Of a stretch of 11,584 nt of DNA, positions 525-11,582 are shown piece after piece; position 1 is the first letter of the stretch, and each line of letters starts with the position of its first letter. The stretch covers positions 1 through 11,584 of the forward strand of contig JBFMGO010000147.1 in NCBI GenBank assembly GCA_040752695.1, given 5' to 3'. Both the position numbers and the translations under genes were made by a program. This DNA comes from a bacterium. GTDB taxonomy: Bacteria; SZUA-182; DTGQ01. The notes under the pieces were generated by a model, which was not told the origin of the DNA, searched no databases, and saw only the letters and a list, made by a program, of their open reading frames with translations.

Positions 525-1001
525 ATGGAAAGGGATGATCTTCAGCTCCAGCTTAATGAACTCAAGAAACACACCTTTTACGAATTGCTCAACCTGGCTG
601 GAAGAGTATACCTGTTGGTCAAATATTCCGAAAATGTGCAGGTGGGAACCAGGGGGTTTTCCCCTGAGGAAAAAGAGCAGGGACTGGTTCTGGTACTGAA
701 TACAAAAATGCGTTTTACCTGGGATGAGCTTGGAATTTCCGTCAAGCTTGTCTTCGGAGATACACCGCAAAAGTGCTTTATTCCGTCTGACGATATCCTG
801 GCAATCTACTCTCCTGAATTGAATTCGCAGCTCATCATAGGGCCGCAGCAGGTCGTGGAGGCCAATACGACTCCGGCCAAGAGCGAAGAGGCTGCCGGCA
901 GCAGCAGTACGACCAAAGAGATTGAGGAATCTCCGTTCAAGGAGGATGACAGCCAGAAAAACAAGGTCGTCCGAGTTGATTTCCAGAAAAAACGAAAATA
1001 A
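525..1001 (+). CDS. sspB: ClpXP protease specificity-enhancing factor, SspB-like
   Basis: SspB-like core (LVLVLN..FTWDELGISVKLVFGDTPQKCFIPSDDILAIYSPE), a low-complexity acidic linker, and a C-terminal tail KVVRVDFQKKRK resembling SspB ClpX-binding tails. GGAG RBS at 511-514. Confidence 0.75.
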   Translation: MERDDLQLQLNELKKHTFYELLNLAGRVYLLVKYSENVQVGTRGFSPEEKEQGLVLVLNTKMRFTWDELGISVKLVFGDTPQKCFIPSDDILAIYSPELNSQLIIGPQQVVEANTTPAKSEEAAGSSSTTKEIEESPFKEDDSQKNKVVRVDFQKKRK

Positions 1002-1716
1002 AATTATTCGTAAAATCGGGCAGGCTATCGCCGATTTTCAACTGATTCAAGACCAGGATAATATACTGCTGGCCCTTTCAGGAGGAAAGGACAGTCTGGC
1101 CCTGCTGGAAATATTACTTCATCTTCAGAAGCGGGCACCCATAAGGTTTTCCCTGACGGCCTGCACCATCGATGAAGGATTCGGCGGGTTTGAAACCGAG
1201 CGGATTGCCGATCATTGCAACCGGAAAAAGGTGCCCTTCATCCTGAAAAAGGAAAAAATCCTGCACATCATACAGGAAAAAAACCTGTCAGGCCCTCATT
1301 TTTGTTCCTTTTGTGCCCGCCTTCGGCGTGGCACCCTGTATACACTCGCCCGACAGCAGGGATTCAATAAAATCGCTCTTGCCCATCACGCCGATGATTT
1401 CATCGAAACCCTCCTTCTGGATCTTTTCTACGCTGGATCATTATGGAAGATGCCCGTACATCTCGTATCGGAACGCCGTAAAAACACAGTCATTCGGCCT
1501 CTTGTTTACGTATATGAAGAAGAAATCAAGCGCTTTTGCGAAACCAGAAATATCATACCCATCCCGCACTTGTGCCCTTTTCACGAAGGAAGCATCTCAC
1601 GGCGTTCTCAAATGAAGCAGTGGTTGAAGGACCTGGCCCAAACCAACCCGGCTATTAAGGGGAACCTGCTGAGAGCGGTCCTTAAGGGGCAGGGAATCAC
1701 CTGCCTGTATTCTTAA
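976..1716 (+). CDS. ttcA: tRNA 2-thiocytidine(32) synthetase TtcA family protein
   Basis: PP-loop LSGGKDS, CSFCARLRRG, KIALAHHADDFIETLLL, VIRPL and a later Cys (HLCP). The start is most plausibly TTG at 976, overlapping the end of sspB; the ORF track start at 922 is probably too long. Confidence 0.88.
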   Translation: MISRKNENKIIRKIGQAIADFQLIQDQDNILLALSGGKDSLALLEILLHLQKRAPIRFSLTACTIDEGFGGFETERIADHCNRKKVPFILKKEKILHIIQEKNLSGPHFCSFCARLRRGTLYTLARQQGFNKIALAHHADDFIETLLLDLFYAGSLWKMPVHLVSERRKNTVIRPLVYVYEEEIKRFCETRNIIPIPHLCPFHEGSISRRSQMKQWLKDLAQTNPAIKGNLLRAVLKGQGITCLYS

Positions 1717-1749: not shown

Positions 1750-3615
1750 TCAGGAATAGTTACCATTATCGATAACAGGCAGCGAGAAGTCCCGGTGCCC
1801 TTTAAACTGGCTCATATATAAGCGGCAATAAAATCCTCGGAGGGCCAGCAGATTTTGATGATTGCCCTGCTCGATAATGCGGCCTCCATTGATGACCAGT
1901 ATCTGGTCGGCATTACGGATAGTGCTTAATCGATGGGCAATTACAAAGCAGGTTCGCCCCTGCATCAACCGCAGCAAGGCCTGTTGGATATGGATTTCAG
2001 TTCGGGTGTCAACGCTGCTGGTAGCTTCGTCAAGGATAAGAATACCAGGATCGGCCAATATGGCACGGGCAATGGCCAGTAATTGTCTTTGTCCCTGGCT
2101 CAAATTGCCGCCTCTTTCTGAGAGGATGGTATGATATCCTTTAGGCAGCCGGCGAATAAATTGATCCGCATTGGCCAATTCGGCAGCGGCGATAACTTCC
2201 TGATCATTGGCGTTAAGTTTTCCATAACGGATGTTTTCCATTACCGAATCGGAGATAAGAAAGGTGTCTTGCAGTACAATTCCCAGTTGACGGCGTAAAC
2301 TTGCCTTCTGAAGATTTCTGATGTCTTGTCCGTCAATAGTGATCTTGCCGGAGTCAATATCGTAGAAACGCATGAGCAGGTTCACAATGGTGGTTTTTCC
2401 TGCCCCTGTCGGCCCGACCAGTGCAAGGGTTTGTCCCGGCTTTGCCTGCATGGTAAAGCCCTGGATCACGGGAGTATCTTTCCGGTAGCCGAACCATACC
2501 TTGTTAAAAATAACCTCTCCACGGACCTTTTGTAATAGTGGTGCATCGGGAGCATCCGCTGGTTCCGATTTTTCATCAGTAATCTCGAAAACACGTTCTG
2601 CGCCGGCCAGGGCTGATTGGACAGCGTTATAGAGATGGGCTACCTGGTTCAAGGGACGTCCGAATTGTTGTGAATAGCTTAAAAAGCTGGCAATGGTACC
2701 AATAGTGGCCAGCCCCTTGACTGCCATCCATCCACCTGCACCGGCGACAGCGGCAAAGCCGAGGTTATTAACCAGGTTCGTAAGGGGCCCCAGAATCAAA
2801 GCATAGATCTGGGCTTTGCCAGCAGCGGCCTGCAAGTTTCGGTTTAACCTTTCAAAATCCTCAAGCATATCCTGTTCGCGGCCATAGGCCTTGACTACGC
2901 GTTCTCCGGTCACGGTTTCCTCAATGAATGAATTTAAAACTCCAAGCCTCTGCTGCTGGTCACGAAATCCTTCGAGGGTATGAGTAGATATCCATCTGGT
3001 AAGAAAGACCATGAGAGGAATCGTGAAAAGGCTTACTATGGCCAATCGAAGATTCAGGCACAGCATCGTCACGGTCACTCCGATCAGTGCCAGAACACCG
3101 GCGATCAACTGAGTGACGCTTTCGTTGAGAATAACGCTGATGTTTTCAACATCATTCGAAAGACGGCTCATCAACTCCCCATGGGGATGACGGTCGATAA
3201 AGCGAAGGGGCAAGGTGTGGACTTTGGCAAAAAGATCGTTTCGTATATCCCGAACAACGCGCTGTGCCACCCCGGCCATTACAGAGGTCTGAAGCCATGT
3301 TGTCAAGGCGGTGATTACAGAGACCAAGAGCATCAAAAGCGAAATCCGAGCCAACCCTTTCAAATTGCCGATGATGAAATATTCGTCAATTGCCCTGCCC
3401 ATAAGGAAGGGGCCAAGCAAGGCAAACCCTGTAGTGGCTCCCAAAAGAAAAACTACGGCCATAAGCCGGATTTGTTGCCTTTTTAAATATACCCCCACAC
3501 GGCGCATGGCAGCGCGAGTATCTTTTGCCTTCTGACCCCGGCCGATCATTCCATGAGCGCCCGGGCCGATAGGGAAACCGAAATTCCCTTGATGACTGGA
3601 TTTATTCCACGTCAT
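1750..3615 (-). CDS. ABC exporter, fused permease/ATP-binding subunit (TM288-like, carries the catalytic Glu and His)
   Basis: N-terminal transmembrane domain; Walker A GPTGAGKT, Q-loop VLQD, non-canonical signature LSQGQ, Walker B LILDEATSSVD, switch IAHR. Overlaps the upstream partner by 4 bp (ATGA, 3612-3615). Confidence 0.95.
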   Translation of the reverse strand: MTWNKSSHQGNFGFPIGPGAHGMIGRGQKAKDTRAAMRRVGVYLKRQQIRLMAVVFLLGATTGFALLGPFLMGRAIDEYFIIGNLKGLARISLLMLLVSVITALTTWLQTSVMAGVAQRVVRDIRNDLFAKVHTLPLRFIDRHPHGELMSRLSNDVENISVILNESVTQLIAGVLALIGVTVTMLCLNLRLAIVSLFTIPLMVFLTRWISTHTLEGFRDQQQRLGVLNSFIEETVTGERVVKAYGREQDMLEDFERLNRNLQAAAGKAQIYALILGPLTNLVNNLGFAAVAGAGGWMAVKGLATIGTIASFLSYSQQFGRPLNQVAHLYNAVQSALAGAERVFEITDEKSEPADAPDAPLLQKVRGEVIFNKVWFGYRKDTPVIQGFTMQAKPGQTLALVGPTGAGKTTIVNLLMRFYDIDSGKITIDGQDIRNLQKASLRRQLGIVLQDTFLISDSVMENIRYGKLNANDQEVIAAAELANADQFIRRLPKGYHTILSERGGNLSQGQRQLLAIARAILADPGILILDEATSSVDTRTEIHIQQALLRLMQGRTCFVIAHRLSTIRNADQILVINGGRIIEQGNHQNLLALRGFYCRLYMSQFKGHRDFSLPVIDNGNYS

Positions 3616-5348
3616 ACGAAATTTGCTCCGTTCCCTAATTGGGATTCATAAATTTCGCGGTAAATGGGACTAAGGATCAGTAATTCCTGATGCGTACCTT
3701 CATTCGTAACGGTGCCGTTGTCCAGCACCAAAATTTTATCAGCCCTCAGGACAGTGCCAAGTCGTTGGGTAATGATAAAACAGGTGCACCCTTTTATGAA
3801 TTTGATCAGGGCATCGTGGATATTCGCTTCGGTCTCAATATCTACTGCACTGGTGCTGTCGTCGAGGATAAGTATGGAGGGTTTGGTAATGATGGCCCGG
3901 GCAAGGGCCAGACGCTGTTTTTGCCCGCCGGAAAGATTTATTCCCCGCTCACCAAGAACCGTATCATAGCCTGCGGGAAATTCAGTGATGAATTCATGTG
4001 CCTGAGCGGCTCTGGCCGCTTCGATTATTTCTTCTTCCGTGGCTTCGGGCCTTCCATAGCAAATATTTTCCCGAATAGTCCCGGAAAAAAGGATAGCCTC
4101 CTGAAGTGTAATGCTGATATGTTTTCGTAAGGATTCCTGTTTTATGTCACGTACATCCACTCCGTCAATCATCACACGTCCTTCGGTTGCATCATAAAAG
4201 CGTGGAAGAAGGTGAACCAGGCTTGACTTGCCTGATCCGGTTGCGCCGATAATGGCCACCGTTTGTCCGGGTTCTACAGTAAAGTTAATATCCCGCAGCC
4301 CCTGGGAATTGCCGTTATAGTTGAAGCAAACGTGTTCGAAAACGACTTTCCCGCGCGGTGAGAAGATATCTACGGCATCGGGCCGGTCGGTTACTTCCGG
4401 TTCTTTATTCAGAATTTCCATAATGCGGCCTGCCGATGCTTCCGCCCGTGATACGCGTATCAAAAGCATACTTACCATGATCAAAGAGAAAAGCATGTGC
4501 AGGATATAGTTAACAAAGGCCATGATCTGTCCTGCCTTTAAAGTTCCCTTCATTACCTGCAGGCCGCCGAACCATATCACTCCGACTATTCCCAGGTTGA
4601 GTGCCAGCATCATGAAGGGCATGACCACTGCCAGTGTCCTGACAGCCCGGATAGTCTGATCCATCAGGTTATCATTTACTTCCCCAAAACGATGTATCTC
4701 ATGATCTTTGCGCACAAAAGCCCTGATGAGGCGAATGCCGGCCAGGTTTTCCTGCATTACCGTATTGAGCCTGTCAAGGCGGCTTTGTACACCGGTGAAA
4801 AGAGGATTCGCCCGCTTAAAAGCCCAGGCCAGTACCATTACCACCAAAGGTCCCAGGATGAGAAGCAGGAAAGACAGTTTGGGACTGGTAATGACCGCCA
4901 TAAATATACTGCCCGTCAGCATCAAGGGAGCCCTTACCAGGATCCTGAGCATGATGAGTACGGATTCTTGCACCTGAGTCACATCATTCGTAAGCCGGGT
5001 TACTAATTGTCCGGTTCCCAGATCGTCCAGATTGCCGAAGGAGAGGGACTGAACCTTGCGAAAGAGCTCACGCCGAAGATCCGCACCAAACCCCTGGGAC
5101 ACCTCAACTGCAAAAACCGTATTCCCCGCGCCCCCCAAAAAACCAACCAGGGCTAATCCAACCATAAGCAATCCCGTACGGACAACTACGGCCATATGAA
5201 GCCGGGCAATTCCCACATCAACGATTCGCTGCATGAGGCGCGGCTGCACAAGGTCCATGGCCACCTCGACCAGCATCAGCAAAGGGCTTAGAAGAATCAA
5301 CTTCCAATAGGGCTGTAAGAATCTGATTAATTTTCGTAGAGAACCCAT
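3612..5348 (-). CDS. ABC exporter, fused permease/ATP-binding subunit (TM287-like, degenerate site)
   Basis: Transmembrane domain plus NBD: Walker A GATGSGKS, signature LSGGQKQR, Walker B ILILDDSTSAVD (Glu replaced by Asp), switch ITQR (His replaced by Gln). ATG 5348 sits 6 nt after AGGA (5358-5355); ATG 5354 is an alternative start. Confidence 0.95.
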   Translation of the reverse strand: MGSLRKLIRFLQPYWKLILLSPLLMLVEVAMDLVQPRLMQRIVDVGIARLHMAVVVRTGLLMVGLALVGFLGGAGNTVFAVEVSQGFGADLRRELFRKVQSLSFGNLDDLGTGQLVTRLTNDVTQVQESVLIMLRILVRAPLMLTGSIFMAVITSPKLSFLLLILGPLVVMVLAWAFKRANPLFTGVQSRLDRLNTVMQENLAGIRLIRAFVRKDHEIHRFGEVNDNLMDQTIRAVRTLAVVMPFMMLALNLGIVGVIWFGGLQVMKGTLKAGQIMAFVNYILHMLFSLIMVSMLLIRVSRAEASAGRIMEILNKEPEVTDRPDAVDIFSPRGKVVFEHVCFNYNGNSQGLRDINFTVEPGQTVAIIGATGSGKSSLVHLLPRFYDATEGRVMIDGVDVRDIKQESLRKHISITLQEAILFSGTIRENICYGRPEATEEEIIEAARAAQAHEFITEFPAGYDTVLGERGINLSGGQKQRLALARAIITKPSILILDDSTSAVDIETEANIHDALIKFIKGCTCFIITQRLGTVLRADKILVLDNGTVTNEGTHQELLILSPIYREIYESQLGNGANFV

Positions 5349-5531
5349 ATGCATTCCTGTTATTGGTCAGGCTCGTGTCTGGATTCCGCAAGGAGCCAAA
5401 AGAGTTTGGATTAACGAATAGAAGACACAGAGGAGGCTCGTCGTTGAGCGAATGACTGTCAGCTTTCAGGCATACATGCAAATACATTATACCCCTCTCG
5501 TTTATGCATGTGCCGTTTACATACGCCCTTT

Positions 5532-7682
5532 TCAGTCCTGCCGGAAAAGCAGGATATAACGCTGTGGTATGAACTGCCGTGCATCGGCCAAGTGAAATCC
5601 ATAATATTTCAGTTGAGCGATAATAAGCTCTTTTGCAATACCTGATCCGAAATAGGGTATAGTTGGAGGATGCGTAATCGCATTATCGACAATCACCAGC
5701 CTTCCTCCCTTTCTGAGCGCTTTCTTCAGGCTGGCGATAAATTCGTCCTTTACAGATTCAATTGAAGCTATGTAGACCGCATGGTACAGGGAACACAAGA
5801 AAACCGTATCCACACTGCCGGCAGGAAGGCAGGCGTAATTTAAGCGTGCCAGCACAGTTTGTATGTTCAATCCGTATTTATCACTTATTTTTCTGACATA
5901 GGCAAGGGCTTCTTTATTGACTTCAAGAGAGTATACTCTGCCTGAAATGCCTACCATCCGGGAAAACTGGAAAGAGAAGAATCCATAACCGCATCCTACG
6001 TCTGCAACTGCCTCACCCTCCTGGATATTCAGATAATCGAGCATCTTGCCGGTTTTCTCCCAACTGTCGCGATTCGGATTATTAAATACAATGTATTCGT
6101 TCCAATCATTCAATTGATCGAAACTCACTTCATTTCCGGAATATTCATAAACAACCTCATGAATCCGTTTTGCAGCGAAATCATCATCAGCGCCAGGTTC
6201 CTCCGGGTCCGGCTTAGCCAGATCATACTTTATTCTGATATACTTTTTTAACAGCGCAAAGTCATTGCATGCCAGATGATGGTAGTATTCAGCACTGAAT
6301 TTATCTCCAAGGATCTCTTTGCACTCTTCTTCCGATGACATGAGAATCCGGCAGAACCATGCAAAAGCAGTGTATTCGTCACCGATTCTCTCCTTCGGTA
6401 TCAATTCCTCATATGCCGTCAGCGCAGCTTCGGCCGCATCCCTGTCTTTTTTCCGGAGTGCATCATAAAAAAGCCTGGCTGCCCTCTTCCCCAATAATGT
6501 ATAGCCTTGTGACGAAGTACCGATCATACGGTAGCGGACTAAGGAGGATCTGGATGTGATGTTGATAGCATCAGGAGTTTTTGGATCTGCAAAAATTACC
6601 GCTCTTGAATGCCCGGCGTCTGATTCCAGCGGCAGCCTGTCCGAGGGTTTGAATTCGAGGACATAACGCTGAGGGGTAAATTGATACTGGGCAGTGAGTT
6701 TAAAGCCGTAGTGCCATAACTGGCCGATAATCAGATGCCGTGATATGTATGGCCCGTGATATGGCAAGTTATCGCCTTCGACCAGATCGTTGTCCACGAT
6801 CACAAGGCGTCCGTCCTGTTTAAGGCTGTTCTTTATACTTTTGATGAAAAGATCCCTTTCCCCGTCGGTACAGGCAGCATAAATAATATGATATAATGAA
6901 CACATATAGACAAGGTCAACTTTGATTGAAGGCTCCATGCCCAGTCCGTCCGGCTGTGATTCAATTACATCGACATTATTGATTCCGTATTTTCTGATGT
7001 AGTCTTTCAGATAGTTCAGATGGCGCTTATTTGTTTCAATGGCATAGACATGCCCGCTTTCACCCACAATATCGGCAAATTTGAATGTGAAATATCCCGG
7101 ACCGCAACCGACATCAGCCACACTGTCCCCTTTGCGAAGATTGAGAGTTCTGATATTTTCAGAGGTCTTATCCCAGCGTGTACGGTCCGGATTATTGAAA
7201 AGAATAAAATCTTCCAGAAAGCGGAGTTTCACTTTAGCTTCAGGGTCGTTTTTCTCGTTTTCTATGAAGTGGTATTTTCTCTGAAGGTATTCCTTTAAAT
7301 TAGAAAAATTATCCTTCGACAACGTATCAAACCAACTGGTAACAAGAGAATGTGAAAAAAAATGGGGCCGTTCCTCTTCCATGGTCATTAAATACTTGCA
7401 TATCCAGAGCAGAGCGGTATATTCACCGCCGAAGTTTTCATTCGGGATAATATGGTCATAAATATCAATTGCTCGTAACAAAGATATTCGCTTTCCGCTT
7501 TCCAGGTAGTCCAGGATCAGTCCGGCAGATTCCTTTCCTCCCTCTGTAATATCGAATGAGTCAAGACTTCCTATATGTACAAGGGATACTTTTGAACCGA
7601 CATGAACGGTAACTGCGCAAGCTGGATTTACAGTCCCTGCGGACATTCGGGAACTTTCACGCTTGCAGGGTGTATTTTCCAT
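5532..7682 (-). CDS. Tandem two-module class I SAM-dependent methyltransferase (each module = helical N-terminal domain + Rossmann MTase)
   Basis: Two SAM-binding motif I copies (VADVGCGPG; VADVGCGYG), each followed by VY(A/S)xE, CSLYH, GRLVIVDN and PQRY. The start is uncertain: ATG 7682 follows a GGAGG, and the longest ORF starts at 7724. Confidence 0.88.
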   Translation of the reverse strand: MENTPCKRESSRMSAGTVNPACAVTVHVGSKVSLVHIGSLDSFDITEGGKESAGLILDYLESGKRISLLRAIDIYDHIIPNENFGGEYTALLWICKYLMTMEEERPHFFSHSLVTSWFDTLSKDNFSNLKEYLQRKYHFIENEKNDPEAKVKLRFLEDFILFNNPDRTRWDKTSENIRTLNLRKGDSVADVGCGPGYFTFKFADIVGESGHVYAIETNKRHLNYLKDYIRKYGINNVDVIESQPDGLGMEPSIKVDLVYMCSLYHIIYAACTDGERDLFIKSIKNSLKQDGRLVIVDNDLVEGDNLPYHGPYISRHLIIGQLWHYGFKLTAQYQFTPQRYVLEFKPSDRLPLESDAGHSRAVIFADPKTPDAINITSRSSLVRYRMIGTSSQGYTLLGKRAARLFYDALRKKDRDAAEAALTAYEELIPKERIGDEYTAFAWFCRILMSSEEECKEILGDKFSAEYYHHLACNDFALLKKYIRIKYDLAKPDPEEPGADDDFAAKRIHEVVYEYSGNEVSFDQLNDWNEYIVFNNPNRDSWEKTGKMLDYLNIQEGEAVADVGCGYGFFSFQFSRMVGISGRVYSLEVNKEALAYVRKISDKYGLNIQTVLARLNYACLPAGSVDTVFLCSLYHAVYIASIESVKDEFIASLKKALRKGGRLVIVDNAITHPPTIPYFGSGIAKELIIAQLKYYGFHLADARQFIPQRYILLFRQD

Positions 7683-8217
7683 TCTCTTCCATTCCTCCAT
7701 TGCGGTATATATGGATACACTCATGAGTTACTTCCAACAGTGACATCCCATCAATACGGATCATATAGTCACACGATCCCGCATAATATGGCTCACGCTC
7801 TTGCATAAGCTGTTCTATTCGCTTCGGCATATTGGCTGTTCTCAGTAAGGGCCTGTCAATCATAAGCGGCTTTTCTTTTTTCAGATGATGGAGAATAGTA
7901 TTGAACGATGCTTTCAGCCAAAGCACGGTTCCTCTTTCTCTTAATAAACGCATGTTATTGAAATTCAATACAATGCCGCCCCCTGTTGAAATCACATAAT
8001 TATCAAGGCTGAAAATTTCCCTGACCATATCCGATTCCAGTTTCCTGAAATATTTTTCGCCATAATTTTCAAAAATAGCGCTTATACTCATAGAGCACCG
8101 TTTTTTTATTTCTTCATCAATGTCGATAAAATCAAGATGCAGCATTTCAGCAATCAATTTGCCGGCAGATGTCTTTCCGGTACCCATAAAACCTGTAAGT
8201 ACAATACCTTCTTTCAC
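7657..8217 (-). CDS. aroK: Shikimate kinase family protein
   Basis: Walker A GFMGTGKT, DIDEEI, IFENYGEKYFRKLE, STGGG, RPLL, REPYY. GTG start with AGAGGAG upstream. Confidence 0.9.
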   Translation of the reverse strand: MKEGIVLTGFMGTGKTSAGKLIAEMLHLDFIDIDEEIKKRCSMSISAIFENYGEKYFRKLESDMVREIFSLDNYVISTGGGIVLNFNNMRLLRERGTVLWLKASFNTILHHLKKEKPLMIDRPLLRTANMPKRIEQLMQEREPYYAGSCDYMIRIDGMSLLEVTHECIHIYRNGGMEENGKYTLQA

Positions 8218-8297: not shown

Positions 8298-10793
8298 TTA
8301 CTTCTCCAGGCCTGCTTTTGGCAAAGTATCGATCCCCATCCGGAGGCCGGCCGCATGTGCTATGTTAGCTGCATGATTCAGATTTACAATAAACCGGTCT
8401 TCCGAGTAAATCCTGTAATTATTCCTGTATAGCCACGGTGTAAAGTTGACCGTTAACACATTCGCACCGGCATTGAGTCCCATGAGTTGCCCTCCGGAGT
8501 GAATGCATTCAAGGGCGCTGACTGCCGGAATAAGACAATCCTTCAATCCGATCCGCAGCAGGGCAATAATATTCAAGGCAAGATTGATGTCGCCGGGCGG
8601 ATTGCTCTGAAACGGCGTCCCCTTATTGGGTATAAATGGGGCAGTACTTGCGAAATCCGGGTGAAATCCGAAGATAAAACGAAGATCCGAAATAAGGTTT
8701 TCCCATGACTGACCGGGAAGCCCTGCAATATTTCCTGTCCCAATCCTCATTCCCGCTTGCCGTATCCACTGCATGCATTTGATTCTCAGATCCAGAGCCG
8801 TATGTACCATACGTTCGTACCCTCTGGCATCGGACGTCTCGAATTTCAGGATAAATGACCCGGCCCCAAACCGGGCAAACCGCTGATACGTTTCCTTATT
8901 ACGTTCTCCTACGCAGAGAATCACTTCTGCCCCCAGATTACGAACAACAGCCGGGACGACTTCCTCCAGGTACGGATCGCACAGGGGGTCCTGTCCCGCC
9001 TGTAAAAACACTGTCGTAATGCCCGTCTCGGTTATGCTCGCAGCAGCAGACAGGATGGTATCCGGATCGAGGCGGAACCTCTCCAGTGTGCTGTTGCAGC
9101 ATCGCATAGCACAATAATCGCAGTTTTTCCGGCAGATATTTGAAATCTCAATGACGCCCCGCAATTGAACCACATCCTTGAAATATCTCTTTCTGACCGC
9201 CCGTGCATGTACAAACAATTCCTGCTGACGATCTCCTCTGGCAGTTAACAGAAACAGGAGCTCTTGATCGTTCATATTCGGTAAATCCCAGTCATTACTG
9301 TCCGGCATGCTGCACTCGGTGGTTTGTCCTCTAAACATTTTCCATCCCAACGCATCTTCCGGTTTATTATCCGCATAGGGATGCAAAGGGCCCCTGGCAT
9401 AAGCATCGCTTGCAAAAGGCTTGAATTCATTGGAATAGAATTGTTCAGCCACTTCATCGGCAACAAAGGCGCCCAATCCGGTAAGGCAAACGCTGGTATC
9501 ATTCTCCTTTATCAGTCCGAACTGTTTCAATTTTCCAACCTTTTTACGGAACACGCTGTCAAAGGGAAGGCCCGTTACTTTCTCGAAGTATGCCTTTTTT
9601 ATCTCACTGTTTTTAAGAGGCAATATTACCGCCCACCGTACTTGCTGCTCCAGGTCACGGATATAGCCGCGGTTAACAGGCAGCCTGCCTGCTTCGATCA
9701 TTTCGTAATACTCGCTGAAATTCTGTGTATTAAGAGCAAACCTGTCCCTCAGACTGCTGAATGCGGTTAAGCCAAATCCAATCTGGTCATACAGCATGCA
9801 GCACTGGTTGTAGGCATAGTGGGAAAAGTGTTTCTTTTCTTTTGAATAAACGCGGCGGAGGTTCTCATGAAAACCATATGTTTGGAGGATTTCGGAAGCA
9901 ATGTGTTTCATCATCATGGTCTCGTCGAAGGAAGGAAAACTGGCCGGATTATCCTCCCGCAATTTGAGAATGTCCCCCTGCAGGTCTCCATAAGCCAGTA
10001 CTTTCAGACGGTAAAGCTGTATTTCATCGACAGGCAGGATAACCGCTTTCTCGATAACATCTATCCAATTTTCAATTGTCTCTTCGGGATGGCCGTAGAT
10101 GAATTCAATATTGAGCTGGTATCCGAACCGCCTGCTGTTCTCAACCGACTCGATCGCCGTTTGAACATCATGAGGCCGGTTCATCACCTTCAGTACGCTG
10201 TCATTCAATGACTGCACACCTATGGTCAGACGATTCACTCCATAGTCTTTCATAATTTGCAGTCTTTGCAGGCCCTTTTTCCCTACAAGTGATCCGGGGT
10301 CCACATCGTAATTGAATTGCCGGCAGAAGGTAAAGTCGATGCGCCTGCTGAAAAATTCGAGAAACCGGGTCAATTGCTCCGGGGTAAGATAGGTCGGTGT
10401 GCCTCCGCCGATAAGGATGGATCTGGGTTTGACCTTATCTACACCCAGCCGCCGCATATATATATCCATCTCTTTTTCCAATGCATCCAGGTAACGGTTC
10501 TTCTCTTCGTTCTGCAGGCCAAGCTTGCCGGGATAATGACAGAAGGTACAACGCTGCCTGCAAAAGGGAAAATGCACATATATATCAACCAATCCGTCGT
10601 ATGGGAGTGTATAACCGTTAAATAGTTCTTCTTCCAGGATCCTCGGATATCGGGTAATCGGAGGATAATGAACCGATGGTACAAAATCCCCGTTAAGACA
10701 GATTAAGCCCTCTGCCATCAGTCTTTTTATTTCATCCAGACGTTGTCTGGCCTTTATCAGTAATCCCGAATATCGAGCTTTTAGAGCAGCCAT
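8298..10793 (-). CDS. Double radical SAM protein: N-terminal HemN-like domain fused to a C-terminal HydE/PylB/BioB-like domain
   Basis: Domain 1: IYVHFPFCRQRCTFC (10562-10539), IGGGTPT, RLTIGVQS, IYGHP, IGFGLTAFS and a HemN_C-like tail (LTGLGAFVADEV). Domain 2: LRGVIEISNICRKNCDYC (9134-9111), TVFLQAGQDP, LKFETSD, GNIAGLPGQ, APFIPNKGTP, AGANVLTVNFTP, YRNNYRIY. AAGGAAGG RBS upstream of the ATG. Confidence 0.9.
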   Translation of the reverse strand: MAALKARYSGLLIKARQRLDEIKRLMAEGLICLNGDFVPSVHYPPITRYPRILEEELFNGYTLPYDGLVDIYVHFPFCRQRCTFCHYPGKLGLQNEEKNRYLDALEKEMDIYMRRLGVDKVKPRSILIGGGTPTYLTPEQLTRFLEFFSRRIDFTFCRQFNYDVDPGSLVGKKGLQRLQIMKDYGVNRLTIGVQSLNDSVLKVMNRPHDVQTAIESVENSRRFGYQLNIEFIYGHPEETIENWIDVIEKAVILPVDEIQLYRLKVLAYGDLQGDILKLREDNPASFPSFDETMMMKHIASEILQTYGFHENLRRVYSKEKKHFSHYAYNQCCMLYDQIGFGLTAFSSLRDRFALNTQNFSEYYEMIEAGRLPVNRGYIRDLEQQVRWAVILPLKNSEIKKAYFEKVTGLPFDSVFRKKVGKLKQFGLIKENDTSVCLTGLGAFVADEVAEQFYSNEFKPFASDAYARGPLHPYADNKPEDALGWKMFRGQTTECSMPDSNDWDLPNMNDQELLFLLTARGDRQQELFVHARAVRKRYFKDVVQLRGVIEISNICRKNCDYCAMRCCNSTLERFRLDPDTILSAAASITETGITTVFLQAGQDPLCDPYLEEVVPAVVRNLGAEVILCVGERNKETYQRFARFGAGSFILKFETSDARGYERMVHTALDLRIKCMQWIRQAGMRIGTGNIAGLPGQSWENLISDLRFIFGFHPDFASTAPFIPNKGTPFQSNPPGDINLALNIIALLRIGLKDCLIPAVSALECIHSGGQLMGLNAGANVLTVNFTPWLYRNNYRIYSEDRFIVNLNHAANIAHAAGLRMGIDTLPKAGLEK

Positions 10794-11372: not shown

Positions 11373-11582
11373 ATGAAAAGATTTACATGGTTCGACTGGC
11401 TGGCTTTAACCCTGGTCATTATCGGCGCCCTGAACTGGGGGCTGGTAGGGTTCTTTAACTATAACCTGGTCAACGCCCTGTTTGGTTCTGCGCTCGGACG
11501 AGTAATCTATTCAATTGTCGGATTGACCGGGCTCTATACCATATTCCTGGGACTGTCAAAAATCGCGCGAAAAGAACCGTAA
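11373..11582 (+). CDS. DUF378 family small membrane protein (YuzA-like)
   Basis: Family pattern LVIIGALNWGLVGFFNYNLVNALFG...RVIYSIVGLTGLY; GAGGAGGT RBS. The stop overlaps a following ATG (TAATG, 11580-11584), suggesting a coupled downstream gene outside the window. Confidence 0.92.
   Translation: MKRFTWFDWLALTLVIIGALNWGLVGFFNYNLVNALFGSALGRVIYSIVGLTGLYTIFLGLSKIARKEP

Follow-up and report, generated by a model that had tools for sequence, protein, structure and literature searches.

Among the described systems closest to the gene treated here, FbiC (CofG fused to CofH) carries two radical S-adenosylmethionine (SAM) domains which act independently via diffusion (PMC8498797). For HemN-like enzymes a radical chemistry that uses two SAM molecules and a SAM-derived methylene radical has been reviewed (PMC10114718), and the NocN structure names Y34, Y96, R153 and D196 as contacts of the second SAM (PMC13266988). 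The pair C10P/C10Q combines a HemN-like enzyme with a methyltransferase in a route via a SAM adduct, with a conserved His (PMC6050322). In HydE the conserved methionines M224 and M291 belong to iron handling (PMC10114646), and carriers with two EamA domains include known transporters of SAM and S-adenosylhomocysteine (SAH; PMC3104491). We report on a single reading frame which joins a HemN-like and a HydE-like radical SAM domain on the bacterial contig JBFMGO010000147.1. The 11,584 nucleotides analysed (the window) are this entire contig (C147), which belongs to a 6.05 Mb genome of 96.6% completeness. The encoded protein may be a cytoplasmic core of two enzymes in tethered form, which would share one pathway with a partner of methyltransferase fold.

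The frame runs free of stop codons over 831 amino acids (positions 8298–10793, minus strand), as an earlier reading of the letters alone (the sequence-only reading) had stated, and is preceded by a purine-rich stretch resembling a ribosome binding site. Pfam finds two Radical_SAM stretches and a HemN_C domain (residues 393–444) on the protein, the architecture that had been expected. Both CxxxCxxC motifs lie at the claimed residues (C78/C82/C85 and C554/C558/C561) and within a Radical_SAM domain, by which each half qualifies for the radical SAM superfamily. The fused homologue P0063, in which the second motif is absent, was excluded by its length from the 102 rows of the HydE-like half. A structure predicted by AlphaFold from an 18-row alignment (mean predicted local distance difference test, pLDDT, 83.5; predicted template modelling score, pTM, of the whole chain 0.58) contains two confident domains. 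The stretch of pLDDT below 50 between them (residues 484–500, nucleotides 9344–9294) falls inside the linker which the sequence-only reading had placed at about 9360–9270. Both domains occur on one chain in 20 out of the 119 other proteins listed (P0004–P0021, P0028 and P0063; 46–69% identity), the remaining listed homologues being stand-alone HemN-like proteins of approximately 480 amino acids (59–78% identity). In the DNA the fusion is visible at 4 out of 134 other loci (L002, L079, L106, L107), and the junction lies at the same place in these loci and in the 20 proteins. Because the fusion recurs in this way, it is real and not an assembly error. An artefact of assembly or a strain-specific read-through, for which one could cite that the nearest relatives by identity (L001 and L060, 76–78%) are split, has practically no chance of being correct.

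If the surroundings of the homologues are taken into account, the two domains turn out to travel together as separate genes. We compared 135 loci, comprising 54 of the 59 from a first set, all 80 of a second set and the window; they include near-duplicates and are thus non-independent, and the five dropped loci hold distant HemN-type proteins of 29–36% identity. At the 55 well-flanked loci (at least 5 kb upstream and at least 4 kb downstream) we counted a HydE-like gene in 53, a class I methyltransferase-fold gene in 49, an EamA gene in 38, an ATPase gene of the ATP-binding cassette (ABC) type in 33 and a gene for a Spy/LTXXQ-like secreted protein in 17. This group of genes is referred to as the cassette. 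Where both domains are present they are unfused at 94 out of 99 loci, with varying gene order and strand, and the fusion is the minority form (5 out of 99). The hosts comprise methanogens, cyanobacteria, Verrucomicrobiota, Bacillota, Bacteroidota, Nitrospirota and Pseudomonadota. This joint occurrence of unfused genes over many phyla bears out the functional link between the two activities that the sequence-only reading had proposed from the fusion, including the expected adjacency of split homologues; the methyltransferase and transporter partners had escaped it. We regard it as very probable that both halves serve one pathway. Of the two well-flanked loci lacking the HydE-like gene, L016 encodes it at another site of the genome, in the company of methyltransferase, EamA and Spy-like genes.

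Searches of 60 relatives of the host (best E-value 1.5e-54, identity not above 38%) and of 400 other genomes from the L002 phylum did not turn up the cassette, and for this reason it is considered patchy and probably mobile. As a separate observation, a conjugative plasmid (NZ_CP094524) of the cultured strain Bradyrhizobium sp. ISRA443 (L163:118-13443) carries a complete unfused cassette beside a surface-polysaccharide locus; Anabaena sp. FACHB-1237 (L017) is another cultured strain with a complete cassette. Several loci lie among glycan-modifying genes. Next to the cassette, exporters of the composition FHA-FHA-ABC-ABC2 are seen repeatedly, in Bacillota, in cyanobacteria and in a metagenome group (L002:6725-9070, L092:6067-8382, L014:604-3090).

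The N-terminal half passes the family test for HemN-like proteins, with 31.6 bits for PF06969 (HemN_C) at a cut-off of 24. Its best NCBIfam matches (residues 66–457) are models of the HemN type, every one below its cut-off, and Foldseek places it on HemN (1OLT) with a target template modelling (TM) score of 0.77. Identity with HemN itself (TIGR00538, 156.1 bits vs a cut-off of 324.95) was rejected, as were HemW (144 vs 205), HutW (127 vs 400), HemZ (118 vs 321) and STM4012 (157 vs 380). A role in heme synthesis fails on the scores, and no heme genes were found among the recurrent neighbours. The half keeps Y72, GGGT129–132, R188, Q194, R206, E230 and Y261. When the second-SAM contacts of NocN and HemN are mapped onto the family, Y72 is present in 131 out of 131 rows and R188, R206 and E230 in 130 out of 131, with E230 being a conservative change from D196 of NocN (PMC13266988). 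The contacts would fit the two-SAM methylene-radical chemistry, which is no proof of it. Further features are a family-specific HYPP motif (residues 42–45), a vicinal Cys pair (C331-C332) and nearly invariant histidines (H42, H86, H208). The N-terminal half falls in a HemN-like family that is so far uncharacterised and retains most of the second-SAM contacts; identity within the family is 50–78%, from methanogens to cyanobacteria.

For the C-terminal half the best NCBIfam match (residues 507–799) is the HydE model TIGR03956 with 236.5 bits, below the cut-off of 254.6, and two split homologues stay under it as well (235.6 and 227.6 bits). Foldseek superposes this half on HydE with an rmsd (root mean square deviation) of 1.4 Å and a target TM score of 0.87. 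With HydE numbering taken from the pairwise alignment, the equivalents of R54, E58, Q107, E161 and Y306 are kept, and in 102 out of 102 rows R159 is replaced by K650, G226 by S716, R279 by Q769 and M291 by T781. The position of M224 is occupied by F714, and Met is found there in only 44 out of 102 rows. Together, R545, K650, S716, S759, Q769, T781, Y796 and R800 form a signature. A wider clade bearing it, collected by a profile search of representatives at 50% identity, branches apart from true HydE in a midpoint-rooted FastTree. HydG (TIGR03955), HydF (TIGR03918) and [FeFe]-hydrogenase (PF02906) gave 0 matches over cut-off in the genome, on which ground a role in hydrogenase maturation was rejected. 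PylB (149 vs 348 bits) and BioB (78 vs 225 bits) are not supported either, and there is no match to BATS. By scores, residues and tree position the C-terminal half belongs to a sister clade of HydE and is not HydE itself. The designation HydE-like given by the sequence-only reading is right for fold and ancestry and wrong if the function of HydE is implied.

The likeness to HydE, which adenosylates the sulfur of an Fe-cysteinate (PMC10114646), opens the question whether the product could be a metal or metalloid cofactor or an organometal compound, with the HydE-like domain attacking a sulfur or metalloid atom and C331-C332 binding the metal. The near invariance of this Cys pair and of H42, H86 and H208 would suit such a product, as would the metal-uptake and chelatase genes adjoining some methanogen loci and a DUF3641 radical SAM gene at one locus (L053). 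The replacement of M291 by Thr throughout and the scarcity of Met at the M224 position speak against it, as do the failure to find HydG, HydF and the hydrogenase in this nearly complete genome and the finding that no metal-enzyme client or metalloid-resistance family recurs in the neighbour clusters present in at least three loci, some of which were Pfam-scanned. We consider a metal product improbable. Within the same clusters, a role in arsenic or other metalloid metabolism found no support. At L053:7015-9373, a single case, the DUF3641 gene and a homocysteine S-methyltransferase gene lie just upstream of the cassette; the former is presumably arsenosugar ArsS-like.

Among the 150 proteins listed for the HydE-sister clade, fusions to a class I methyltransferase (7), an AMP-binding domain (2) or an HD domain (1) were found (P0152, P0155, P0157, P0161, P0186, P0199, P0242, P0160, P0239, P0226), and in Streptomyces viridifaciens and Bacillus mycoides the gene shares its cluster with genes for adenylation enzymes and carrier proteins. 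Because its members are fused to, or clustered with, such genes, we infer that the clade could comprise biosynthetic enzymes with a small carboxylate as substrate or product. The S. viridifaciens cluster (pKVP1, L164:359-25905) contains radical SAM, epimerase, GT4, phosphatase, NUDIX, PIG-L and carrier protein genes, a set which we take to recall tunicamycin clusters, and in addition parts of a non-ribosomal peptide synthetase and the HydE-sister gene. The one of B. mycoides (p539, L165:5177-18924) contains a B12 radical SAM gene, an adenylation enzyme, a carrier protein, a glycosyltransferase, a spermidine-synthase-like gene and the HydE-sister gene.

The partner encoded in the window is a tandem protein, each repeat of which combines a helical N-domain with a Rossmann domain that contains DxGxGxG and [C]SLYH motifs. 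DxGxGxG, S239, Y241 and H242 are invariant and C238 is nearly so. A structure search with the methyltransferase as query yielded generic class I enzymes, the best being the uncharacterised 3DH0 (Z 21.1, rmsd 2.0 Å, 183 residues aligned). To count signal peptides we required a mean Kyte-Doolittle value of at least 1.8 over 12 residues ahead of the domain. At the 85 loci with an intact N-terminus of the partner, signal and EamA occur together in 48 and are both absent in 32, while 4 loci have the signal only and 1 has EamA only. At the 4 signal-only loci a contig end cuts the EamA side, and the EamA-only locus is frameshifted. Most of the clade holding the fused forms is without EamA and without a signal peptide on the methyltransferase. 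Since the host possesses LpxC and yet no EamA of the cassette type (its only one scores 39.5 bits, compared to at least 284 for cassette members), the loss of EamA tracks the cassette and not the envelope type. Simpler signal-bearing class I enzymes replace the usual partner at L036, L040, L041, L049 and L050, and the partner family thus appears exchangeable. In Gastranaerophilales (L020:6036-9137, L018:7007-8035) one to three membrane-anchored proteins without a Pfam match stand in the place of the partner. They were grouped with Methyltransf_22/FkbM by Atlas alone (0.94, 194–202 shared features), a call that profile searches against Pfam and PDB did not support.

From the observed architecture, co-occurrence, conserved residues and joint loss of EamA and signal we arrive at a proposal of three chemical steps, in which the pair would make a SAM-bearing product consumed by the methyltransferase-fold partner. 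To this reading, built on analogy, we assign a probability of roughly 40%. The HydE-sister barrel might direct a 5'-deoxyadenosyl radical at a small anionic metabolite, possibly amino-acid- or carboxylate-like and held by R545, K650, S759 and R800, to give a precursor. The HemN-like domain might then bind two SAM molecules and attach a SAM-methylene radical to this precursor, so that the SAM sulfonium would be retained in a SAM adduct or altered SAM; the order of these two steps is a guess. Finally the partner could consume the product and release SAH. In most hosts the partner would be exported and EamA would pass the product across the inner membrane, whereas in the clade of the window the partner would have turned cytoplasmic, EamA would have been lost and the ABC exporter would probably remove the end product. 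The proposal accounts for an exported SAM-fold enzyme in need of a dedicated EamA, and for the joint loss of both. The invariant H242 and the intact DxGxGxG of the partner are in parallel to C10Q (PMC6050322).

Several points weigh against this proposal. The chemistry is argued by analogy throughout. The C10P adduct is too unstable for isolation (PMC6050322), which is unfavorable for the export of an adduct, and Tyr96 of NocN corresponds to Leu127 here (PMC13266988). The co-loss of signal and EamA is a single change on the tree, hence one event and not 80, and several of the 32 loci with neither are short. The usual methyltransferase is absent in 6 out of the 55 well-flanked loci. The HydE-like domain is sometimes dispensable, as P0063 lost its second cluster motif, and in the 2.2 Mb assembly of L048 (completeness unstated) the cassette HydE-like gene was not found, only a true HydE beside HydG. 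At this Ruminococcus locus (L048:9878-13861) the HemN-like gene ends in a relic of the linker and is followed directly by the methyltransferase.

The joint loss fits equally well if EamA is a plain SAM/SAH exchanger serving an ordinary extracytoplasmic methyltransferase, while the radical SAM pair makes a small metabolite that is methylated last and exported. The HemN-like domain would here be a C-methylase and the HydE-like domain a mutase or a C-S bond former. Such an arrangement agrees with the intact canonical SAM-binding motif of the partner, with the characterised EamA-type carriers, which move unmodified SAM/SAH (PMC3104491), and with the varied exporters common nearby (ABC at 33 out of 55 loci, further MacAB-type, ABC-2 and amino-acid permease genes). 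It would need a second carrier for the radical SAM product, whereas only EamA is constant and the other exporters vary, and an apparently exchangeable partner family is unexpected for an enzyme of a single metabolite. We rate it as the main rival, somewhat less likely than our proposal. An extended form of our proposal, in which the two domains jointly are the synthase of a non-standard SAM-type alkyl donor, goes a step further. The donor would be a new cofactor, exported by EamA to interchangeable methyltransferase-fold enzymes which alkylate targets of the cell envelope; candidate users would be the CSLYH family, the simpler signal-bearing class I enzymes and possibly the FkbM-like proteins of Gastranaerophilales. 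We regard this extension as unlikely.

With respect to the history of the fusion, a tree of the N-terminal half was calculated with IQ-TREE from 78 of the 131 rows (all fused rows, the rows with a cytoplasmic partner and 30 hand-picked ones). A clade of 50 rows (Shimodaira-Hasegawa-like approximate likelihood ratio, SH-aLRT, 98) contains all 24 fused rows as well as split forms from methanogens and from a metagenome group (L089–L103), and fused and split states require 5 changes on the tree. The split members retain the motif of the linker start as a C-terminal tail: it is present in 30 out of 31 split rows within the clade, in 17 out of 24 fused rows and in 0 out of 65 rows outside. As a single clade holds all fused rows and its split members keep the motif, the fusion probably arose once and was split again several times. 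While one must keep in mind that the motif was derived from the very sequences scored and that a FastTree of the HydE half separates the fused rows, which both weigh against a single origin, we still favor it. L107, which branches off first within the clade, is fused and yet has a signal-bearing partner and EamA.

This history also bears on the channelling suggested by the sequence-only reading, according to which a fixed interface would pass a reactive intermediate between the active sites. The fusion is kept over approximately 20 proteins down to 46% identity, and a short conserved motif stands at the start of the linker, as one might expect of a maintained interface. The stretch between the domains, on the other hand, varies from 26 to 133 amino acids across the 21 fused proteins, 94 out of 99 two-domain loci are unfused with varying order and strand, split forms are nested inside the fused clade, the predicted pTM is as low as 0.58 despite confident domains, and the domains of FbiC operate by diffusion (PMC8498797). 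Channelling is therefore not supported, and we consider it improbable. The fusion looks like a loose tether and not like a tunnel, and would only co-localize domains that work independently and share a diffusible intermediate. Fusions of two radical SAM domains, characterised cases of which the sequence-only reading had called uncommon, are not rare within the HydE branch, where P0166, P0180 and P0205 are natural fusions of HydE to a BATS-domain radical SAM protein resembling HydG; two of them additionally bear an N-terminal HupF/HypC domain.

The fusion, the shikimate-kinase-family gene, the tandem methyltransferase and the heterodimeric ABC exporter follow each other on the minus strand (Table 1). 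A further copy of the shikimate-kinase-family gene lies on contig C23 and is 28% identical to the one in the operon; as a core gene of the cassette it was rejected, being present at only 5 out of 135 loci. The SspB-like and TtcA-like genes, located where the cassette ends, probably belong to the housekeeping set of the host. The frame at the start of the contig is one which we take to be YD/RHS-repeat-like. A scan of the window with Rfam gave no match at the gathering threshold, and the numbers from scans for promoters and terminators stayed close to chance level (21 vs 18.4 and 18 vs 11.8).

Table 1. Positions of the features in the window (cassette genes, domains and motifs of the fused protein, flanking genes).
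Feature	Position	Strand	Remarks
HemN-like radical SAM domain, residues 1–475 (Radical_SAM + HemN_C)	9369..10793	−	Pfam, NCBIfam, alignment
First CxxxCxxC, C78/C82/C85	10539..10562	−	131/131 rows of the HemN half
Vicinal Cys pair, C331-C332	9798..9803	−	130/131 and 129/131 rows
Linker, residues 476–506	9276..9368	−	opens with N-x3-D-A-[FLMY]-G
HydE-sister-clade radical SAM domain, residues 507–822	8328..9275	−	NCBIfam, Foldseek, tree
Second CxxxCxxC, C554/C558/C561	9111..9134	−	kept in 102/102 rows of the HydE-like half (P0063 excluded)
Shikimate-kinase-family gene	7657..8217	−	within the operon; 54% identical to that found close to the L002 fusion
Tandem class I methyltransferase-fold protein	5532..7724	−	two repeats of ~325 amino acids; probable start 7679; no signal peptide
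ABC exporter half, first heterodimer subunit (membrane + ATPase)	3612..5354	−	probable, unproven operon member
ABC exporter half, second subunit	1750..3615	−	4-nucleotide overlap with the first
SspB-like gene and TtcA-like tRNA thiolase	525-1716	+	convergent with the ABC pair
Open frame at contig start	2-418		ends after 138 amino acids; no Pfam match
DUF378 small membrane protein	11373-11582		separated from the divergently oriented fusion by an AT-rich gap

Through the fusion, two radical SAM families, both uncharacterised, become linked to a single pathway, and it offers a construct of one chain for finding the reaction. The high conservation of the N-terminal half points to one fixed, undescribed product, and the reaction of the HydE-sister domain, once known, would explain several biosynthetic clusters together. 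If the donor were indeed exported, this would provide a route for SAM-type chemistry in the periplasm and show how enzymes of the SAM type work beyond the cytoplasm, with the fused protein as the entire donor synthase in one chain. These expectations are tempered by the existing precedents for fusions of two radical SAM domains and by the present one being a minority form. The sequence-only reading had left room for the architecture being already common and characterised; our literature search, with most subscription papers and supplements outside its scope, yielded no description of the fusion architecture or of the cassette.

Compared to known systems, the protein shares with FbiC the two radical SAM domains per chain, their separation in other organisms and their service in one pathway (PMC8498797), and it passes as an FbiC-type fusion in the general sense of two intact radical SAM domains that are split but linked elsewhere. 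It differs in that FbiC joins CofG to CofH in a known pathway, whereas here a partial barrel of the HemN type with HemN_C is joined to a full barrel of the HydE type; identity with FbiC or CofGH was rejected (CofH model, 41.6 vs a cut-off of 374). The N-terminal half resembles HemN/CgdH (1OLT) in fold, HemN_C and the equivalents of Y56, H58, GGGT, Q172 and R184, and differs from it by E145 to D and D209 to E. The C-terminal half shares with HydE of T. maritima (3IIZ/7O1O) the fold (rmsd 1.4–1.6 Å) and approximately 32% identity, and is set apart by its separate branch and by the changes at R159, G226, R279 and M291 found throughout (K, S, Q and T). Regarding chemistry, the second-SAM contacts are mostly kept in comparison to the class C methylases NosN/NocN, TbtI, YtkT, Jaw5, ChuW and MenK, with L127 in place of Y96 of NocN. 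The combination of a HemN-like enzyme with a class I methyltransferase in which DxGxGxG and a conserved His are present recalls C10P/C10Q of CC-1065, the His being compared by presence and not by position (H242; H138 in C10Q). In contrast to these systems, the cassette is without recurrent scaffold-making genes and adds a HydE-sister enzyme; the partner is in most cases exported and often a tandem protein, and the HYPP and CC motifs are peculiar to this HemN-like family. The EamA of the cassette, a gene not contained in the window, resembles the SAM transporters of Chlamydia (CTL843) and Rickettsia (EamA/DME) as a carrier of two EamA domains linked to SAM-dependent enzymes (PMC3104491); these import SAM from the host, whereas the cassette EamA would transport its putative cargo outward. 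Two-domain radical SAM fusions are thus known as a kind, and what is new is the pairing of a HemN-like with a HydE-like domain, which appears to mark an undescribed pathway.

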